A stretch of 64,000 bases of DNA from a virus (IMGVR_UViG_3300045988_078288), one strand, 5' to 3'; shown: positions 6,349 to 60,497, numbered from the stretch's first letter. Numbers and translations: made by a program. The notes: generated by a model from the letters alone, not told the origin.

Positions 6349-7253
6349 CCCCAGAACCCTCCGTTATTAAGGGCATTAAAGCCGTACAGACCCATCTGTG
6401 CTGCTACACAATTTGGAACGGCGGTTGCTTGTGCGTAATTTAACGTTACCGTCTCGGGCATCTTGCATTTGATACCCGCAACCTCCTGCTGCAAGCCTGC
6501 CAACACCGCATTGATAGGAGCGACCGCCTGACCTACAATCTGACTTGTCATAGCCGACGACTTGAACGTTGAGTTCTCCTCACGCAGATGGTCTAACTTG
6601 TCCTGCATCTCTCGAAGCTCTGCGGCACGCTGTCCGTCAAGAATCTGCTGTGTGCTGTTCTGGATAGTGTTGGCAATACTTGAGAAACCGCGCTCCTGAC
6701 TTGTTGCAACGCCATTGATAGAATTCTGCAAGGTGTTGGTCTGCTGGCATGTGGCAAGTCTGTTCTCGCAGCAACAAGAAGCGAGCTGCTGTGCAATCTG
6801 CATGTTGCCTTGCTGGAGAGCGTTGATAACTTGCATACCGCTCATGCCGATCTGATTGCCCACACCCTGAACCTGCGAGGTAAGAGCCGAGATAGCCGCC
6901 TGTATCTGACCTTCGGTGCAGTTAAGCTGTGTAGCAAGGTTGCTTAGAGCGTTTCTGTTTCCACCGATGGCATCCATGAGGAGCGAGCGACCGTAGTCGT
7001 TGTTGATTTCATTAGCAATACCGCCTGCGCGACCATTGCCGAAACCACCCCAACCATTACCGCCCCAACCCATGAGGAAGAATAGGAAAATTACCCACAT
7101 GAAGCCGTCGCCCCAACCATTGCCGTTCTTGTTCATGGCAAGGAGAAGATTAGGGTCAAGACCTCTCTGTTGAAGCAGAGGAGCGAGCAAACTCATCATG
7201 CCACCCTGTCCGCTACCTTCATTGCCGAATACATAAGTTTTTGACTCAGACAT
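6345..7253 (-). CDS. Hypothetical Gly/Trp-rich membrane-associated protein with a Gln/Asn-rich coiled region
   Basis: 302 aa. Contains WVIFLFFLMGWGGNGWGGFGNG followed by a long Q/N-rich helical region. Confidence 0.6.
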   Translation of the reverse strand: MSESKTYVFGNEGSGQGGMMSLLAPLLQQRGLDPNLLLAMNKNGNGWGDGFMWVIFLFFLMGWGGNGWGGFGNGRAGGIANEINNDYGRSLLMDAIGGNRNALSNLATQLNCTEGQIQAAISALTSQVQGVGNQIGMSGMQVINALQQGNMQIAQQLASCCCENRLATCQQTNTLQNSINGVATSQERGFSSIANTIQNSTQQILDGQRAAELREMQDKLDHLREENSTFKSSAMTSQIVGQAVAPINAVLAGLQQEVAGIKCKMPETVTLNYAQATAVPNCVAAQMGLYGFNALNNGGFWG

Positions 7254-7463
7254 AATACAATCTTTTTTTTAAATTTTACCTTAGTTGACTAAACACTATT
7301 GTAACGTTACACCGCAAAGTTAGCGAGTTACGACGGATAATGTTATAACACGCTCAAAGATTTTATATTACGCTGATAATCAGATATATAAGGTGATAGT
7401 CGGTACTATCACGTTGTAAAATATTCTTTCCAATGTTTGAAGAATTGGAAAGAAATGGAAACA

Positions 7464-54242: not shown

Positions 54243-54692
54243 ATGGCATTACAATGGAAATGGACTGACAAGATGGGCAAGGCAATCATCTCTCAGAACG
54301 AGAGAAAGTACGAGATTGGCATCTACGGCGGCAACGCTCTTGCGATATTCATCAGTGAGGACAAAGACTCATACCAGCTCTACAAGGCTGTCGCAGCGTT
54401 CAACCGTGACCGCCACAATCTCCGTTGGCAGACCAAGCAGTCAAAGGCGTTCACCGATGCCTACAAGGGCTCTGGTGCGTACTTCACGATGAAGAACCTC
54501 ATCCTGTTCCACGGCGCACGCTTCAATGGCTGCACCACGGCAAAGCAGTCGCTCGCACGCATGGAAAATCTCGCCTCGAACCTCGAAGGTTGGGAACTCC
54601 TCGGTGCAATGAAGCAGCTTATCAAGGACTCTGGCATCTCTGTCGAAAAGAAGATTGCCGAGTGGAAGAAACAGCCTGCAACTAAGAAGTAG
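54243..54692 (+). CDS. Hypothetical protein
   Basis: 149 aa with a GAATTATG start. Confidence 0.55.
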   Translation: MALQWKWTDKMGKAIISQNERKYEIGIYGGNALAIFISEDKDSYQLYKAVAAFNRDRHNLRWQTKQSKAFTDAYKGSGAYFTMKNLILFHGARFNGCTTAKQSLARMENLASNLEGWELLGAMKQLIKDSGISVEKKIAEWKKQPATKK

Positions 54693-54913
54693 TACGCAGC
54701 CAAGAAGGAATTGCCGTTCCGTCTGCGGTGGCTCGGCATCATTTATGAAAGCTCAGCAGAAGAAGGTTCCTTACCCGCCTATCGGTCAGGAACCTTCCTT
54801 GCAAGCTTTGAAATCACACGCTTACAGACAGACACCCGTCCGTGAGCCGCAGACAAGCCTAAACCTATCCGTTGTTCAGCAGCGGATAGCCTATCAACCA
54901 AAATTTGTTTATT

Positions 54914-55111
54914 ATGAAGTACAGAATTGTTTTCTACACCTTCGAGTACGAGGGTGTGAACGCAGCGTTGGACAAGTCAATGCCTATGTCACGCTATGCC
55001 TGCCGTAAGTATCTCCGCGAAAACGGATGGAAGTACGAGAAATCACGATGGCGCAACGGCTTCGGTTCGTTCGCCGCCATCGTGGAGTACAAGACACGCT
55101 CCGCAGCCTAA
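54914..55111 (+). CDS. Hypothetical small protein upstream of the RT
   Basis: 65 aa from the ATG at 54914 (TTATTATG). The stop lies inside the GCCTAAA box. Confidence 0.45.
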   Translation: MKYRIVFYTFEYEGVNAALDKSMPMSRYACRKYLRENGWKYEKSRWRNGFGSFAAIVEYKTRSAA

Positions 55112-55176
55112 ACCACAAGTGGTTACACATCGTAACCGCTTGACTTATTTACAAACCATTAAATAACAATAGAATT

Positions 55177-56445
55177 ATGAAAGAAGATAAGATTTTAGAG
55201 ATGTTTTTCGCCCCCGAACGCTGGCAGTACGCAATCGCCAAAGGTGTTGTCAAGGACATATCCAAGGGCGTGCTCTACAAGCTCACCAAACCCGAGGCGC
55301 GCGCACTCATGTATCAGCGCATCCGTGACGGCAAGTACAAGATAATGCCGCCACATACAGCGCAGATACCGAAAGATAACGGCGAGTTCCGTACTGTATA
55401 TGTGAACGAGCCTGCCGACCGAGTGTTGCTCTCCATCGCCAACGACCTTCTCTTCGAGCTTATGCCCGAGATGGTTCATCCGAGCTGTCGCTCGTATCAG
55501 AAAGGTATCGGCTGCGGTAAGGTGGTACAGGAGGTTTCACGCCGTATGTGTGCGTTGCAGACTTCCGATGTGCTCGGCTTCAAGTCCGATTTGTCGAAGT
55601 ATTTTGACAGTGTTCCGTTGGAGTTCGTTGACGCAGCTTTTGACAAGGTGGAGGAAAAGTACGGGCACTCGGCTCTGATAGACGTTCTTCGCGACTACTA
55701 TCACTCCGACCTGTACTTCACTCCCGAAGGTGAGCTGCACGAGAAGTACCAGTCGTTGAAGCAGGGTTGCTCCGTTGCCTCGTGGCTCGCAGACGTAATC
55801 CTGTATCATATCGACGAGAAACTATCGCAGCTCGAAGGCTATTACGCTCGATACTCCGACGATATGCTTTATGTCGGTAGTGACTACGTTAAGGCGATGC
55901 ACATTCTTACGGAGGAGCTTGGCAAGATGCAGATGAAGCTCAACCCGAAGAAGGTGGAGTATCTTGACGCAAACCACTGGTTCAAGTTCCTCGGCTATTC
56001 AATCAAGGGCAGTAGCATATCGCTTTCCTCTACACGCATCAAGACGTTTCAGAAGGAGATAGAGTCGCGTTCGTGCTGTAGACGAGGTGCAACGCTTACT
56101 ACATCGGTAAACATGATTAACCGATACCTCTACAAGGGTTATGACGGTCACTCATGGGCTACGCAGGTTCTCCCGATAATCAACGTAAAGGAGGACATCG
56201 ACACGCTGTCTACGTTCATTCTTGACGCTCTGCGTGCTACCGCAACCGGCAAGCGACGCATTGGAGGTCTTGGTTTTGCCAAGGAACAGAAGATGGGATG
56301 TATCTCACGAGGACGAGGAAAGAATGTCACAACTAACAGAGCTAAGACACCCGAGCGTATTGACGGCTTTATGTCACTTGGTCTCATGCGCAACGCATTG
56401 CTGACCTCGCGAGCTGCATACGACACACTTGTAGCCAATCTCTGA
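55177..56445 (+). CDS. Reverse transcriptase (stand-alone, RT domain only; class unassigned)
   Basis: RT motifs present: IPKDNGEFRTVYV, ADRVLLSIA, GFKSDLSKYFDSV (motif A Asp), LKQGCSVASWLADV (motif B), YARYSDDMLYVG (motif C, YSDD) and FKFLGYSI. 422 aa. Confidence 0.9.
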   Translation: MKEDKILEMFFAPERWQYAIAKGVVKDISKGVLYKLTKPEARALMYQRIRDGKYKIMPPHTAQIPKDNGEFRTVYVNEPADRVLLSIANDLLFELMPEMVHPSCRSYQKGIGCGKVVQEVSRRMCALQTSDVLGFKSDLSKYFDSVPLEFVDAAFDKVEEKYGHSALIDVLRDYYHSDLYFTPEGELHEKYQSLKQGCSVASWLADVILYHIDEKLSQLEGYYARYSDDMLYVGSDYVKAMHILTEELGKMQMKLNPKKVEYLDANHWFKFLGYSIKGSSISLSSTRIKTFQKEIESRSCCRRGATLTTSVNMINRYLYKGYDGHSWATQVLPIINVKEDIDTLSTFILDALRATATGKRRIGGLGFAKEQKMGCISRGRGKNVTTNRAKTPERIDGFMSLGLMRNALLTSRAAYDTLVANL

Positions 56446-57461
56446 CAAACGCCTAAAAACGGATGCAGCCCAAACGCTGCATCCACAACCAAAACCAAAT
56501 ATGAATTTCCGAGAACACGGAACTGCGCAACGCAGGATGCCACATTTATATACCCGCCTCAAAGATTCGGGATGTCTCTGGACAATCCAGAGCGTATCCC
56601 GAATCCTAAAGGCTGGTACAATCACGACCATACAGAAATGTTCCACGGCATAATGCCTGTGCAAGGCGGCGCACACCGCCCTCGGCTTGAAGAATGGCAT
56701 CCGTTTAGCGCTCAGGTTGCTAACGATGACGACGTCGATACGAACCTATCGACGTCGTCATCGAGAAACCTGACCTACATCACTCGTTTACATCCATGTG
56801 CCACAGCCATCGTTCAAGCCCACTCACGTCAGCGCAGACGTTCGTCTTCCCCGAAGGAGTACATTTGCTACACCAAGCTTACACGCGGCGCTTGGATGGT
56901 TATCACCATCTCGCTCGCCGCGTGCTTGCTTCAGTTCGACCAAACCCTTACAGCCATGCGCCACGCTCCTTGTGGAAGACAAGCCATTGCAAGCCTAAAT
57001 CGGGCACGATGGGGAGACAACGTTTATATCCCAGTACATAAGGGCTGTGTTAGTGCCGGTTGCAACAACCGGCGCACCCAGCCCCACTACTGGGCTAAAT
57101 CAGATTCTTACAGCAATGTACCCGTCTCCAATCGTGCCCACAATACAACCAACGGAATTTTGCGGTTCCTTATGACGTGCCGTGCAGCCTACTTTAATGA
57201 TACCGGTTTCGTATCATCCGCCGTCCACCAGGTTGACACCTGGCTCCCTGCCGATTTCTCAACCGGTACATATCAAATCCTTACAGTCACGCAACACGGC
57301 TACAGGCACGTCATTACTTTAAAAAGTGCTGCATTTGTTCGTGAAATAGCGATAAAATCACTACCTTTGCATTATAAACCAATCACAAACCAATCAGCAA
57401 TGCTTGCCTTAACGACCTCGTATTGTAGAGGTCGCTATTAACCAATAAATTAGATTAAATT
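56446..57461 (+). ncRNA. Candidate RT-associated structured RNA (1016 nt; coding status unresolved)
   Basis: No ORF has the operon start context except a 50-codon one at 56501. About 33% C versus 21% G over 56761-57300 (hand count). More than 10 hairpins, including a perfect 16-bp stem at 56725-56762 and a 10+7-bp stem at 56564-56605. Bounded by the standard intergenic modules. Confidence 0.4.
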
Positions 57462-58019
57462 ATGGCAGTAACAAAATTTGTAAGAGCGCAGGACATTCTC
57501 AAGGAGAAAGGGTTCAAAGCGCCACCGTTCGATACGGCGGGATTTCAGAACGCAGTCGTGGAGTTCTTTCGCAACAATGATGTATCAGCAAAATTGCCGG
57601 TTATTCCGTTACGCTTTGTGGAATTGCCCGACCCGCCGCAAAGTGGCTTTTCCATGCCAGAAAAAGTAATGTTGCACGCACCCGACTGGCACGTCTACTA
57701 TGAACGTTCCACGGGCGTAACAGTTATTGAAAACAACAAGGCGGCAAAAGCACTGGAAGAACTCGGAGGGGAACTCGAAACCGATGACGGGCGCTATTAT
57801 TTCTTTGAATACAGAAATGCCGGCACAGAACAAGTATATAAGGGCGGACATACGGACGTTAATGGGATTACTTACGCGGAAAAGCCTGTAATTTTCGTGG
57901 ACGAGCCATACGCAGCCAATGCGGTGGCTTTATTGAAGATGGCTGGCTTTATCGTAAGCCGAAAGCACAAATACAGTGGAAGCAAGTATCTATCTTGTTA
58001 CGATGTAACCCTCACCTAA
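57462..58019 (+). CDS. Hypothetical protein
   Basis: 185 aa with an AAATTATG start. First gene after the RT-associated segment. Confidence 0.55.
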   Translation: MAVTKFVRAQDILKEKGFKAPPFDTAGFQNAVVEFFRNNDVSAKLPVIPLRFVELPDPPQSGFSMPEKVMLHAPDWHVYYERSTGVTVIENNKAAKALEELGGELETDDGRYYFFEYRNAGTEQVYKGGHTDVNGITYAEKPVIFVDEPYAANAVALLKMAGFIVSRKHKYSGSKYLSCYDVTLT

Positions 58020-59393: not shown

Positions 59394-60497
59394 ATGACAC
59401 AGCTACTTAGCACAAGACGCTGGATGGACCTGCTCACTCCCGAGCAGCAGAAAACCTACTCCAGCGCAATCCGAAAAGGTTACTTTGCGACTTATGACGG
59501 CTATCGTTGGCGTCACGAGTTCTATGGAGCTTTCATCTGGAAACACCCTGGACGCGTGAAGATCATTGATAAATTCAAGCAGGTTATCGGTCGTGCACCA
59601 TTGTGGGAGGACATCACGGACGACAACCTGCGAGACCTGAAGGAAGAGCTGGACGCTTCCTATGCGCCGAACTCTGTGCGTACAATATGCGCAGAGATTA
59701 ACGCAATCATCCGTGAGAATGCAGAGTCGAAAGACATTCCTTCCATGTCCTATGCCCGTGTGCTGCGTGCAAAGAAGGTGGTGGTACAGTCCGTGTTTCT
59801 CACCGACGAGGAGATACGCAAGATACACGAGTATCGCCCTAAGACAGTACGCAGACGACATGCAAAGCGCATCTTCATGCTTGAATGCCTTTGCGGAGCA
59901 CGTTTCTCCGACTGCCTGCGCCTCTCGCCCGTAAACCTCTCTTCTGATGGTCGCACCCTGACTTATGTATCAAAGAAGACCAACCATGAGGTGACGGTTC
60001 CCGTGCACCCGTGGCTAAGGGAGTATCTCGTTCCGTCTTCACCTATCGAACCGCAGTCACTTGCAGTTCCTTCCTACAACGACGCGATACGTTTCTTCTG
60101 CCAATCATGCGGTATCGACCAGCAGGTTAAGGTGTACCAGGCAGGTCGCGAGCAGACAGGCCCGAAGTGGAAGTTTGTATCAACACATACAGGTAGACGC
60201 TCGTTTGCAACCAACCTGTCGTTGAAGAACGTACCGTTGGAGCAGATAGCGTTGATGATGGGTCACTTCACGGGCAACGCCCCGGATGTTTCCATGACGC
60301 AGCGATACATCGTGACGCGACTCCAGCTGTCGCCCGCAGCGTTCCAGGCGTTCTCGATTCCTGGTTCCGAAAGAGCGGCGGCAGAGAACGAGGCTTACAA
60401 CAACCCGACAAACGATTTTGACGACTTCGACGACTTCGATATTCCCGAGGACGAACAGCTCGTTATACCCGAGAGACCGCAGACCGAAGCATCGTAA
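59394..60497 (+). CDS. Tyrosine recombinase / integrase with an acidic C-terminal tail
   Basis: ARFSD (Arg), HTGRRSFAT (H-x-x-R), MMGH and QRYI (Tyr). The C-terminal extension contains NDFDDFDDFDIPEDE. Confidence 0.8.
   Translation: MTQLLSTRRWMDLLTPEQQKTYSSAIRKGYFATYDGYRWRHEFYGAFIWKHPGRVKIIDKFKQVIGRAPLWEDITDDNLRDLKEELDASYAPNSVRTICAEINAIIRENAESKDIPSMSYARVLRAKKVVVQSVFLTDEEIRKIHEYRPKTVRRRHAKRIFMLECLCGARFSDCLRLSPVNLSSDGRTLTYVSKKTNHEVTVPVHPWLREYLVPSSPIEPQSLAVPSYNDAIRFFCQSCGIDQQVKVYQAGREQTGPKWKFVSTHTGRRSFATNLSLKNVPLEQIALMMGHFTGNAPDVSMTQRYIVTRLQLSPAAFQAFSIPGSERAAAENEAYNNPTNDFDDFDDFDIPEDEQLVIPERPQTEAS

Follow-up and report, generated by a model that had tools for sequence, protein, structure and literature searches.

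The locus described here raises the question of what a phage reverse transcriptase (RT) gene works with when it is followed by about 1 kb of sequence in which no gene has the start context usual for the operon, and whether this segment encodes a protein, acts as DNA or is itself an RNA. It lies in a 64,000-nucleotide stretch of viral DNA (IMGVR_UViG_3300045988_078288), which as a whole is referred to below as the window and which also contains an integrase gene (59394-60497, identified with Pfam). An RT 99% identical to that of the window is encoded on a 51.8-kb Leyella stercorea contig, related prophages occur in Segatella, Alistipes and Bacteroides, and the same layout is found in an isolate, Bacteroides phage BS-TP1 (on B. 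salyersiae BG8). The carrier is probably a temperate phage whose host is a gut member of the Prevotellaceae, presumably Leyella stercorea.

Classification of the 422-aa RT against the curated PADLOC profiles assigned it to UG27, with E = 7.6e-213 and with residues 3-422 aligned to positions 2-420 of the 420-position profile; UG26 (1e-31), Drt9 (5.8e-25) and UG17 (1.2e-24) came next, and the best retron RT profile gave E = 3.8e-11. RVT_1 (residues 64-276, E = 1.2e-18) was the sole Pfam domain, no fused domain being found beyond it with Pfam, and NCBIfam returned sub-threshold RT families only. Judged by these profile matches, the enzyme is a stand-alone, full-length UG27 RT belonging to the Class 2 UG/Abi group. 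Its variable sites are distributed over the three codon positions as 14/9/82, the pattern of a gene on which strong purifying selection acts, and its C-terminal tail is conserved (...RAAY(D/N)TLV..L), with Y415 invariant in alignment A5.

The earlier note, made from the same DNA, had described a phage-borne, stand-alone RT without any other domain, which agrees with these results, but it also pointed to the likeness of motif C to DGR RTs, and here the evidence went the other way. No DGR family was present among all 7 NCBIfam families matched up to E = 1, nor among the best 25 of 70 PADLOC matches, and a TR/VR pair, sought within the 64-kb window as a sign of a DGR, was absent (blastn, word size 7), the 13-mers common to the locus and the rest of the 64 kb being hairpin self-matches only. 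Apart from motif C, the reading of the locus as a DGR, a group II intron or a retron could appeal to the best NCBIfam match, a group II RT/maturase family (E = 2e-25, below cut-off), and to the best structural neighbour of the AF2 model (pLDDT 73.8), which is also a group II intron RT (TM 0.61-0.65). The structural neighbours of this model are, however, generic RTs, including DRT9 (TM 0.54-0.57), with a DGR RT structure ranking 20th and a DRT2 structure 48th among the fold matches, and the profile scores are far below their cut-offs: 89.7 bits against 300 for group II introns (TIGR04416) and 36.7 bits against 235 for retrons (NF038233), whose RNA, moreover, is neither downstream, nor repeated, nor folded as it is here. 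There was no match to a group II, retron or other relevant Rfam family, whether at gathering thresholds or at E <= 10, and Avd, maturase and endonuclease domains were missing from the Pfam and PHROG scans, so that we regard this reading as extremely improbable. No tRNA or tmRNA was found.

The UG27 class is already known: it was described as a Class 2 UG/Abi RT of human-gut phages and counted in 1,447 dereplicated viral genomes, and the intergenic stretch adjoining the RT was reported to hold a putative, conserved ncRNA "with three long stem-loops" (Mestre et al. 2022, NAR 50:6084, PMC9226505). The proposal that the present locus differs from all described classes can therefore not be maintained. 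In the same study UG27 showed no enrichment in defence islands, and its authors suggested that it serves the phage, for instance as an addiction module or in anti-defence; the "complete system" as they define it requires protein clusters 337 and 346 (PMC9226505). The window resembles the published UG27 loci in the full-length profile match, the lack of a fused domain, the gut Bacteroidota phage context and the structured RNA in a large RT-adjacent intergenic region; it differs in the organisation of that RNA and, apparently, in its neighbouring genes, both of which are described below.

The RT gene is separated by 1016 nt from the following gene that has the AATTATG start context, which begins at 57462, and no terminator-like site was found by a terminator scan between the RT stop and the repeated part of this segment. 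Over positions 56761-57300 we counted 32.2% C and 20.7% G, as opposed to 25.0% C and 26.0% G in the RT gene, and on the + strand the region 56446-57320 folds at -329.5 kcal/mol, compared with -236.9 +/- 6.1 for dinucleotide shuffles (z = -15.1). These figures bear out what had been noted from inspection, namely the gap, a composition of about 33% C versus 21% G and a series of stems, all of which, including those at 56725-56762 and between 57002-57010 and 57131-57139, are present in the minimum-free-energy fold. An ATG-initiated ORF of 289 aa (56572-57441) does run through the segment, so that a protein product had to be considered, but it lacks the start context of the operon (gattcgggATG) and has no Pfam or PHROG match. 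Its frame does not stay intact in relatives at 93-96% identity, the length of only 1 in 79 pairwise indels is divisible by 3, its variable sites show no third-position excess (71/58/71), and the longest open frames in the group of relatives at 70% identity reach about 110-160 codons. That the segment encodes this protein is almost certainly wrong. When RNA covariation was set against codon-level conservation, the helices covaried and no codon-like signal appeared; on this comparative evidence the 1016 nt are non-coding and evolve as an RNA with compensatory changes, not as a protein, and the structured RNA on the RT strand that the earlier note had suggested as cognate to the enzyme is indeed there. 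It is not, however, the single RNA of about 1 kb that had been supposed, being made up of five tandem hairpin units of about 140 nt with a period of about 160 nt, while a sixth copy is found upstream of the RT (Table 1).

Table 1. Features of the RT locus, with positions counted from the first nucleotide of the window
Feature	Position	Strand	Evidence or contents
up2, 149-aa chimeric gene	54243..54692	+	tblastn, alignment A4
Module U0	54707..54856	+	small hairpin 54707-54720 (GGAA-UUGCCG-UUCC); hairpin unit 54720-54856; motif 54813-54836; R1 E = 8.4e-4, R2 E = 1.3e-11
Insertion, some relatives only	54905..55142	+	68-aa TTG-start ORF 54905-55111; terminator-like hairpin 55116-55142
UG27 reverse transcriptase, 422 aa, YSDD active site	55177..56445	+	profile match, Pfam, codon-position variation
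Array leader	56446..56523	+	9-bp hairpin 56461-56484 without U-tract; small hairpin H0 56507-56522
Unit U1	56524..56664	+	motif AUCACGACCAUACAGAAAUGUUCC at 56621-56644; pseudoknot of H0 loop GAACA 56513-56517 with UGUUC 56639-56643; R1 E = 1.8e-4, R2 E = 3.1e-13
H1 and unit U2	56665..56825	+	H1 56665-56680, loop CGCACA; U2 56682-56825, motif 56779-56802; pseudoknot GCACA 56671-56675 with UGUGC 56797-56801
H2 and unit U3	56826..56982	+	H2 56826-56841, loop AGCGCA; U3 56843-56982, motif 56939-56962; pseudoknot GCGCA 56832-56836 with UGCGC 56957-56961
Linker and unit U4	56981..57143	+	linker 56981-56995 (AAGCCAUUGCAAGCC); U4 57001-57143, motif 57099-57122; R1 116.6 bits
H4 and unit U5	57154..57319	+	H4 57154-57169; U5 57172-57319, motif 57272-57295; pseudoknot UUGCG 57160-57164 with CGCAA 57290-57294; R1 E = 8.5e-6
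AT-rich spacer and 5' region of next gene	57320..57461	+	not counted within the array

The array was recognised through a 24-nt motif which occurs five times in 56621-57295 at a spacing of 158-173 nt; the units have diverged too far for Tandem Repeats Finder to see the period of about 160 nt, and an 11-nt repeat was all that it reported. A covariance model trained on orthologs of U4 only (R1) matches U1-U5 and U0 in the 64-kb window and no other site there, and the unit matches of a second model (R2) range from E = 3e-22 to 5e-8. Each module comprises a small hairpin with a loop of about 6 nt and a long hairpin, the base of which is formed by stems P1 and P2 and which also has a further stem P3 and a variable apical hairpin. 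The internal loop of the long hairpin is asymmetric, its 5' side carrying UU(U) and its 3' side the motif AYCA-N6-UAYAG-N2-AYGYRMC, and the 3' end of this motif pairs with the loop of the small hairpin in a 5-bp pseudoknot. The pseudoknot sequence is unique to each module of the array, and neighbouring modules would therefore not mispair. In U4 a register-shifted pseudoknot is tentatively placed between AUUGC (56986-56990) and GCAAU (57113-57117). The long-range pair 57002-57010 with 57131-57139 is the basal stem of U4, whose basal helices covary in alignment A1, and the perfect stem at 56725-56762 falls inside U2. The array ends with U5, a unit type conserved in every lineage examined.

Covariance models were needed for detecting this fold, as MAFFT and RNAalifold gave no consensus for pooled paralogous units and recovered only the basal helices for U4 orthologs. 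Across 141 distinct units, 80% of the cells of P1-P3 were paired against 50% in shuffles, pair counts being inflated by the fitting of the alignment (A2) to the covariance model; the covariation score was 0.59 against 0.18, a value reached by 0 of 500 shuffles, with slid controls at or below 0.15 and with 22 of 22 pairs changing on both sides. G-U pairs are frequent in P1-P3, which places the fold on the + strand. For the pseudoknot, a register-free permutation test gave 4.67 versus 3.85 +/- 0.065, and the formal count gave 83% pairing with double changes in 5 of 5 pairs and a score of 0.53 versus 0.18 (0/500). Covariation can be followed in individual elements as well, for example in the pseudoknot between H0 and U1 and in the stem of H1, which appears as GGCGG/CCGCC, GGUGG/CCACC, GGAGG/CCUCC and GGCAG/CUGCC. 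Within the modules, sequence varies most in the apical hairpins, which nevertheless keep their pairing; searched as possible guides or targets, their sequences had no 13-mer match elsewhere in the 64-kb window. These comparisons demonstrate that the array has a modular fold, supported by covariation and lying on the + strand.

Among UG27 loci, for which 396 IMG/VR stretches encoding relatives and 4,579 protein clusters at E <= 1e-10 were found, arrays contain 3-8 units, all on the strand of the RT. The covariance search yielded 176 matches in 35 sources, all on the + strand, and in held-out loci, among them prophages of Alistipes, Bacteroides and Muribaculaceae whose RT identities are 56-66%, there were 89 matches at E <= 1e-3 in 26 loci, again all on the + strand. 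The exact motif is present in at least 120 IMG/VR loci, as opposed to 10 for a wrong-spacing control (N3 for N2), and in 99 of 106 testable motif loci a UG27 RT is encoded on the same strand 123-1011 nt upstream. Each array position is conserved even between phages with no more than about 60-70% RT identity, and entire modules have been exchanged between phages with 100%-identical RT genes. The array and the UG27 RT are thus, on the evidence of these genome comparisons, tightly associated throughout the family.

Lone units are also found in other intergenic regions, in four loci (L001, L005, L027 and L036) some 2 kb upstream of the RT and, elsewhere, after the gene of the ~350-aa protein described below in the 70%-identity group. 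This, together with the orientation of all units with transcription, would suit a reading in which the units are general phage RNA elements, serving for transcript stabilisation, processing or anti-termination and lying near the RT through operon position only. Such a role is distinctly unlikely in view of the close RT linkage in nearly all testable motif loci and of the window itself, where units are found beside the RT only; besides, 3-8 elaborate pseudoknotted modules with position-specific conservation exceed the needs of stabilising hairpins, and all characterised Class 2 UG RTs need an adjacent ncRNA.

A further possibility is that the array acts as DNA, i.e., as a replication origin, a packaging site or a recombination hotspot. 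Phage origins commonly hold dense, regularly spaced inverted repeats, and the array is of just this appearance; its minus strand also folds beyond chance (z = -11.9 for 56446-57320). The frequent G-U pairs would, however, be A-C mismatches on the opposite strand, the matches are all on the coding strand except for one with E = 0.8, the pseudoknot joining a loop to an internal loop covaries, and the conserved single-stranded motifs fit a folded RNA, all of which makes a function at the DNA level very improbable.

In most UG27 loci the array is flanked by proteins of about 150 aa and about 350 aa, which we used as proxies for clusters 337 and 346 of PMC9226505 and presume to be those clusters. 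Profile HMMs found neither the ~150-aa protein nor the N-terminal part of the ~350-aa protein in the 64-kb window (best E = 1.9 and 0.085, respectively). What remains of the latter is a C-terminal fragment of about 100 aa inside up2, homologous to the C-terminus of the companion protein; the N-terminal ~47 aa of up2 come from an unrelated family of ~105-aa proteins. The tblastn hits of up2 have 56% identity to residues 241-344 of the 350-aa protein of locus L043 and 43% identity to BS-TP1 gp82. Neither up2, nor the accessory proteins, nor the neighbours belong to a Pfam or PHROG family. U0 follows directly after up2 and is separated from the RT by the insertion, which 9 of the 20 closest loci share with 97-99% identity; the pseudoknot of U0 has one mismatch and is weaker than in the relative L001. 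With the accessory proteins absent from this lineage, the system may have undergone reduction or lost part of its function, yet the RT is under strong purifying selection.

Taken together, we consider it rather probable that the locus is a UG27 RT system of a temperate phage with a cognate array RNA, the modules of which would act as scaffold and template. The array follows the RT, in the same orientation and not separated from it by a terminator, and by analogy with DRT2, DRT9 and DRT10 each module may be an RT-binding scaffold which also carries a template, with the RT making cDNA from the module, possibly primed by the invariant C-terminal Tyr415. By the same kind of analogy, the array might assemble several RT protomers on one transcript or else supply several distinct templates, and candidate roles for the phage would be counter-defence, exclusion of rival phages or phage DNA metabolism. 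Counting against this explanation are the lone units at other intergenic sites, which may have a role beyond templating, the mismatched pseudoknot of U0 and the register shift in that of U4, and a lineage without the ~150-aa and full-length ~350-aa proteins.

The closest solved structure from the UG families is that of DRT9 (UG28), likewise a Class 2 UG RT, in which poly-dA synthesis is protein-primed from conserved C-terminal tyrosines and a roughly 150-nt ncRNA serves as scaffold as well as template in a hexameric RNP (PMC12483538). The tyrosine primers have a possible counterpart in the invariant Y415 of the UG27 tail. The universally conserved U-tract template of DRT9 can be compared with the conserved U-run that faces the loop in each UG27 unit, although here it is a UU(U) in the 5' internal loop with a putative template role. 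The two also differ in that DRT9 has a single ncRNA upstream of the RT, as against 5-8 copies downstream here; DRT9 is a bacterial defence system with a YADD active site, whereas UG27 is phage-borne, not enriched in defence islands (PMC9226505) and has YSDD in this locus, where the Drt9 profile match is also weak. DRT10 (UG17), also a Class 2 UG RT with a C-terminal priming residue, combines the RT with an ncRNA and a SLATT protein and makes telomerase-like tandem-repeat cDNA (PMC12632851); in DRT9 and DRT10 a C-terminal Tyr or Ser primes and an ncRNA loop is the template (PMC12483538, PMC12632851). The template loop of DRT10 lies directly 3' of a boundary-setting stem, just as the 3' internal-loop motif of UG27 lies directly 3' of P3, but its ncRNA is single-copy and has a SLATT partner, while UG27 has neither SLATT nor a defence-island context, and the UG17 profile score is low here. 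A telomerase-like A-B-A' template in the internal loop of the UG27 units was considered and set aside, the pattern being inconsistent across units. For DRT2 (UG2), PMC12039810 and PMC11100668 describe a Class 2 UG RT bound to a neighbouring pseudoknotted ncRNA which is scaffold and template for rolling-circle reverse transcription. In DRT2 there is a single upstream ncRNA, priming takes place from its 3' end and the product encodes a protein, whereas the apical regions in UG27 are hairpin-shaped, variable in length and unlikely to code.

The apical hairpins invite another comparison, with the msr-msd of retrons, where an RT also adjoins a structured RNA, a long hairpin varies while keeping its pairing and a basal stem joins the ends. 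If the variable apical hairpin were the template in such an msd-like manner, the product would be a set of small hairpin ssDNAs, one per module, diversified in an arms race; P3, which joins both ends of the apical region, the variability with preserved pairing and the swapping of modules between phages with identical RT genes are in keeping with this. Retrons, however, have an msr/msd junction, while the UG27 module is a hairpin with an internal loop and a pseudoknot, repeated and downstream; neither a retron nor any other Rfam family matched, the retron RT profile score is far below its cut-off as given above, and structural spacer helices vary with compensatory change in the same way. A template of this kind is unlikely, and a module serving as scaffold and template remains our preferred interpretation.

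Compared with the three long stem-loops published for UG27, the arrangement found here, with 3-8 tandem pseudoknotted modules and dispersed single ones, is of a different organisation, and the anatomy of the modules is, as far as the literature covered goes, undescribed; a bioRxiv preprint of September 2026 on the UG27 ncRNA (10.64898/2026.09.22.753630) may overlap with it or contradict the mechanism. We tentatively put forward, as a somewhat unlikely idea, a new organisational principle in which one scaffold/template RNA per RT gene gives way to 3-8 pseudoknotted modules, arrayed in tandem and orthogonally addressed, which on one transcript would build a defined multi-RT particle or programme several different cDNA products, serving the phage and not the host; if true, the RT could also dock at the single modules that lie dispersed in the operon. 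UG27 is among the most abundant RT groups of human-gut phages, with no function or product reported in the literature covered. DRT2, DRT9 and DRT10 are bacterial defences, each making an unusual DNA from a single ncRNA (PMC12039810, PMC11100668, PMC12483538, PMC12632851), and a relative on the side of the phage, built around a multi-module RNA, would reveal what viruses do with such machinery. For experiments, the locus offers exact module boundaries, the internal-loop motif, five pseudoknots for mutate-and-rescue designs and Y415 as the candidate priming residue, in a naturally minimal variant consisting of the RT and array without the two accessory proteins, and BS-TP1 on B. salyersiae BG8 provides a cultured model with a matching layout.

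Two minor observations concern the sequence itself. Past about position 57310 conservation falls and gaps increase, and the spacer beyond U5 contains a TAnnTTTG-like motif (57362-57369), which may be a Bacteroides-type -7 element, the 11-nt repeat (57376-57396) and a hairpin (57412-57435). Within U2, the sequence UACAUC is present twice, 13 nt apart, an example of the A-B-A' pattern considered above.

The RT belongs to a family that already has a name. RVT_1 is the sole Pfam domain in its ORF (E = 1.2e-18), and when the protein was classified against curated profile sets, as an earlier note on this DNA had advised, it was covered end to end by the PADLOC RT_UG27 profile (E = 7.6e-213), with UG26 (1e-31), Drt9 (6e-25) and UG17 (1e-24) as runners-up; against the NCBIfam profiles for group II RT/maturase, Drt3a, Drt2 and retron RTs it scored far under every cut-off. 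Mestre et al. 2022 (PMC9226505) described UG27 as a Class 2 UG/Abi group whose members are mostly encoded by human-gut phages of Bacteroidetes and Firmicutes, show no enrichment in defence islands and associate with two protein clusters of unknown function; its RT-adjacent intergenic region contains "a putative conserved ncRNA with three long stem-loops", which is at times a target of host CRISPR spacers. The note's reading of the locus as an RT with a cognate RNA therefore stands only in part: the pairing itself holds, but the claim that it differs from all described classes is incorrect, since UG27 had been named and its ncRNA reported. A bioRxiv preprint of 24 September 2026 (10.64898/2026.09.22.753630) mentions UG27 74 times and "UG27 ncRNA" 11 times; with that preprint left aside, the modular pseudoknotted array presented here is a substantive refinement over the descriptions found, and the locus is a new, reduced UG27 member. 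A search of the PDB found no UG27 structure, and an AF2 model of the RT (pLDDT 73.8) has its nearest matches in a group II intron RT (TM 0.61-0.65) and in DRT9 (TM 0.54-0.57).

Between the RT gene and the next gene with the start context of the operon, (a/g)AATTATG, which begins at 57462, lie 1016 nt, as the note had observed; a 289-aa ORF inside this stretch lacks that context. The composition reported there for 56761-57300 (about 33% C versus 21% G) was measured as 32.2% C and 20.7% G, the RT gene having 25.0% C and 26.0% G, and every stem it listed was found in the minimum-free-energy fold. On the plus strand, 56446-57320 folds at -329.5 kcal/mol, compared with -236.9 +/- 6.1 in dinucleotide shuffles (z = -15.1; minus strand, z = -11.9). 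The structure of the segment far exceeds chance, and the observation made at this locus is confirmed.

Codon-level conservation, a further check proposed in the note, was followed with a collection of 80 IMG/VR loci whose RTs range from 100% to 70% in identity. Among relatives with 93-96% identity over the segment, the 289-aa frame is disrupted in differing ways; just one of the 79 indels counted pairwise has a length divisible by three, and variable sites are distributed 71/58/71 over the codon positions, versus 14/9/82 for the RT genes of these loci. These patterns mark the 1-kb segment as non-coding; the RT is under strong purifying selection. The segment is homologous and collinear family-wide (nhmmer E down to 1e-19), and the RT is followed in every case by a gap of 0.66-1.35 kb.

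A 24-nt motif, AYCA-N6-UAYAG-N2-AYGYRMC, occurs five times in the segment (starts 56621, 56779, 56939, 57099 and 57272), at spacings of 158-173 nt. The unit of about 140 nt around each copy, folded alone, gives one common long hairpin, in which basal stems P1 and P2 lead to an asymmetric internal loop (motif in the 3' strand, conserved UU(U) in the 5' strand), followed by stem P3 and a variable apical hairpin. A covariance model (R1) built solely from orthologs of the fourth unit, U4, matched all five array units in the whole window, together with one upstream of the RT (U0), and nothing besides these six; a second model (R2), built from 150 units, matched the same six with E-values of 3e-22 to 5e-8 and had no match outside them over 64 kb on both strands. 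A scan for terminator-like sites between the RT stop and the array found none, which fits co-transcription.

Features of the UG27 locus, with the pseudoknot pairings between the small hairpins (H) and the units (U) that follow them
Feature	Position	Strand	Remarks
up2	54243-54692	+	chimeric gene, by homology
U0	54720-54856	+	unit (R1, R2); directly after up2, upstream of RT
Insertion	54905-55142		upstream of RT; 68-aa TTG-start ORF and terminator-like hairpin (55116-55142)
RT ORF	55177-56445	+	422 aa
U1	56524-56664	+	unit (R1, R2)
289-aa ORF	56572-57441		without operon start context
U2	56682-56825	+	unit (R1, R2)
U3	56843-56982	+	unit (R1, R2)
U4	57001-57143	+	unit (R1, R2)
U5	57172-57319	+	unit (R1, R2)
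Pseudoknot H0-U1			GAACA / UGUUC
Pseudoknot H1-U2			GCACA / UGUGC
Pseudoknot H2-U3			GCGCA / UGCGC
Pseudoknot linker-U4	56981-56995 (linker)		AUUGC / GCAAU; register-shifted, tentative
Pseudoknot H4-U5			UUGCG / CGCAA

The same units recur throughout the family. In 35 sources, 176 unit matches were obtained, on the RT strand in every case, and 26 loci that had been held out, the most distant prophages among them, gave 89 matches at E <= 1e-3, again on the RT strand only; behind the RT these form arrays of 3-8 units, and a solitary unit follows the accessory genes. The exact motif was present in at least 120 IMG/VR loci (a control pattern with the wrong spacing, in 10), and a UG27 RT lies 123-1011 nt upstream of it on the same strand in 99 of the 106 testable loci.

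The covariation that the note had suggested looking for supports the helices. The 22 pairs of P1-P3, examined in 141 distinct units, reach 80% pairing versus 50% in shuffles, with both sides changing in every pair, and their covariation score is 0.59 versus 0.18 in shuffles (reached in 0/500; slid controls <= 0.15). The alignment used had been fitted to the model and is thereby biased towards the structure, but the same compensatory changes were seen by eye and with RNAalifold in orthologous MAFFT alignments. G-U pairs are frequent, which puts the fold on the plus strand, that is, in RNA of the RT sense. Ahead of every unit lies a short hairpin whose loop of about 6 nt is complementary to the motif's 3' end; loop and motif end co-vary, with pairs at other loci including UUGCA/UGCAA, UUGCC/GGCAA, UCGCA/UGCGA, UUGUG/CACAA and AUUAU/AUAAU. 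In a register-free permutation test of loop against motif, the mean longest complement was 4.67 versus 3.85 +/- 0.065 when randomly re-paired. A formal count, in which RNAfold hairpins were picked blind to the motif and each joined to the model-anchored motif tail, gave 83% pairing over the five pseudoknot pairs, both-side changes in 5/5 and a score of 0.53 versus 0.18 (0/500 shuffles; slid controls <= 0.17). The five pseudoknot sequences of the window array are mutually distinct, so that neighbouring modules, each a small hairpin plus its unit, would not be expected to mispair.

With R1, the U4 orthologs of every lineage score 60-120 bits and paralogous units only 15-50; the array positions are therefore old and individually conserved. 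In one relative (L001) the RT gene is 100% identical in nucleotide sequence, yet the segment is merely 88.8% identical because U2 and U3 have been replaced; whole modules are exchanged between phages. Array copy number ranges from 3 (the group of locus L027) to about 8 (Segatella copri HDD04), and related phages have extra single or paired units at further intergenic sites of this operon: some 2 kb before the RT, immediately before it, or right behind the gene for a ~350-aa protein, in each case on the transcribed strand (L036, 2658-2974 and 4636-4944; L027, 2880-3195; L001, 3014-3158; L043, 9464-9606).

Most loci continue from the array into genes for a ~150-aa and this ~350-aa protein, for which Pfam and PHROG searches gave no family, followed by one more single unit. 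Profile HMMs of the 150-aa protein (181 homologs) and of the N-terminal part of the 350-aa protein (174 homologs) found nothing in the window, and up2, the gene preceding U0, keeps a fragment of the 350-aa protein: over its final ~100 aa it matches that protein's C-terminus, and over its first ~47 aa an unrelated family of ~95-110-aa proteins. A protein identical to that of up2 is recorded from 7 contigs (P0121). By these homologies, the window lineage is a reduced variant consisting of the RT, the array and a fragment of one accessory gene.

The window, a phage genome, encodes an integrase at 59394-60497. Leyella (Prevotella) stercorea has a 99%-identical RT on a contig of 51.8 kb, and more distant copies, at 56-72% identity, occur in Segatella, Prevotella, Muribaculaceae, Alistipes, Bacteroides and Butyricimonas genomes. 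The layout is shared by the cultured Bacteroides phage BS-TP1 (host B. salyersiae BG8; PQ571274, 4854-7465), whose UG27 RT, gp79, is annotated as "tail protein" and is followed by an unannotated 1349-nt gap with R2 units at 7005-7151 and 7306-7448. Four UG27 loci on genome contigs (L212, L215, L219 and L237) come from bins labelled Firmicutes, Bacilli, Acutalibacteraceae or Faecalimonas, labels that either match the reported Firmicutes hosts or reflect phage contigs mis-binned into MAGs.

The adjacent ncRNA is both scaffold and template in all characterised Class 2 relatives (DRT2, DRT9 and DRT10), the pseudoknotted RNA of DRT2 being copied by a rolling circle (PMC12039810, PMC11100668). The DRT9 particle is a hexamer that uses a template of four U (U4) in an RNA of ~150 nt and primes from C-terminal tyrosines (PMC12483538), and DRT10 has a stem-bounded loop template with a C-terminal Ser or Tyr primer (PMC12632851). 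By analogy, the UG27 module most likely is an RT-binding scaffold carrying a template, and Y415, invariant in the C-terminal tail of the RT, is a candidate cDNA primer. Modules are self-contained, occur singly as well as in arrays and vary in number, which indicates that the working unit is the module and not the whole kilobase; the array may build a multi-RT particle or else supply several templates. This modular anatomy makes the function of the UG27 family directly testable.

Several smaller features were seen around the array. In U2, the hexamer UACAUC occurs twice (56776-56781 and 56789-56794), 13 nt apart, in the conserved internal loop directly 3' of P3, an arrangement that resembles the A-B-A' template layout of DRT10 but is inconsistent across units. 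A 9-bp hairpin without a U-tract, GGAUGCAGC/GCUGCAUCC, at 56461-56484, 16 nt past the RT stop codon, is kept in the close group and missing or replaced in other loci. About half of the closest relatives carry the insertion upstream of the RT, and in those free of it (e.g., L001) a unit lies immediately before the start of the RT. The gene that follows the array has in its leader 1.9 copies of an 11-nt tandem repeat, AAACCAATCAC (57376-57396), the number of which is polymorphic, since most close relatives have one more copy (AAACCAATCGC). The gene itself (57462-58019) is a mosaic with a constant N-terminus, its first ~45 aa being 84-100% identical in relatives, even in the L027 group, and the remainder swapped for unrelated sequence.
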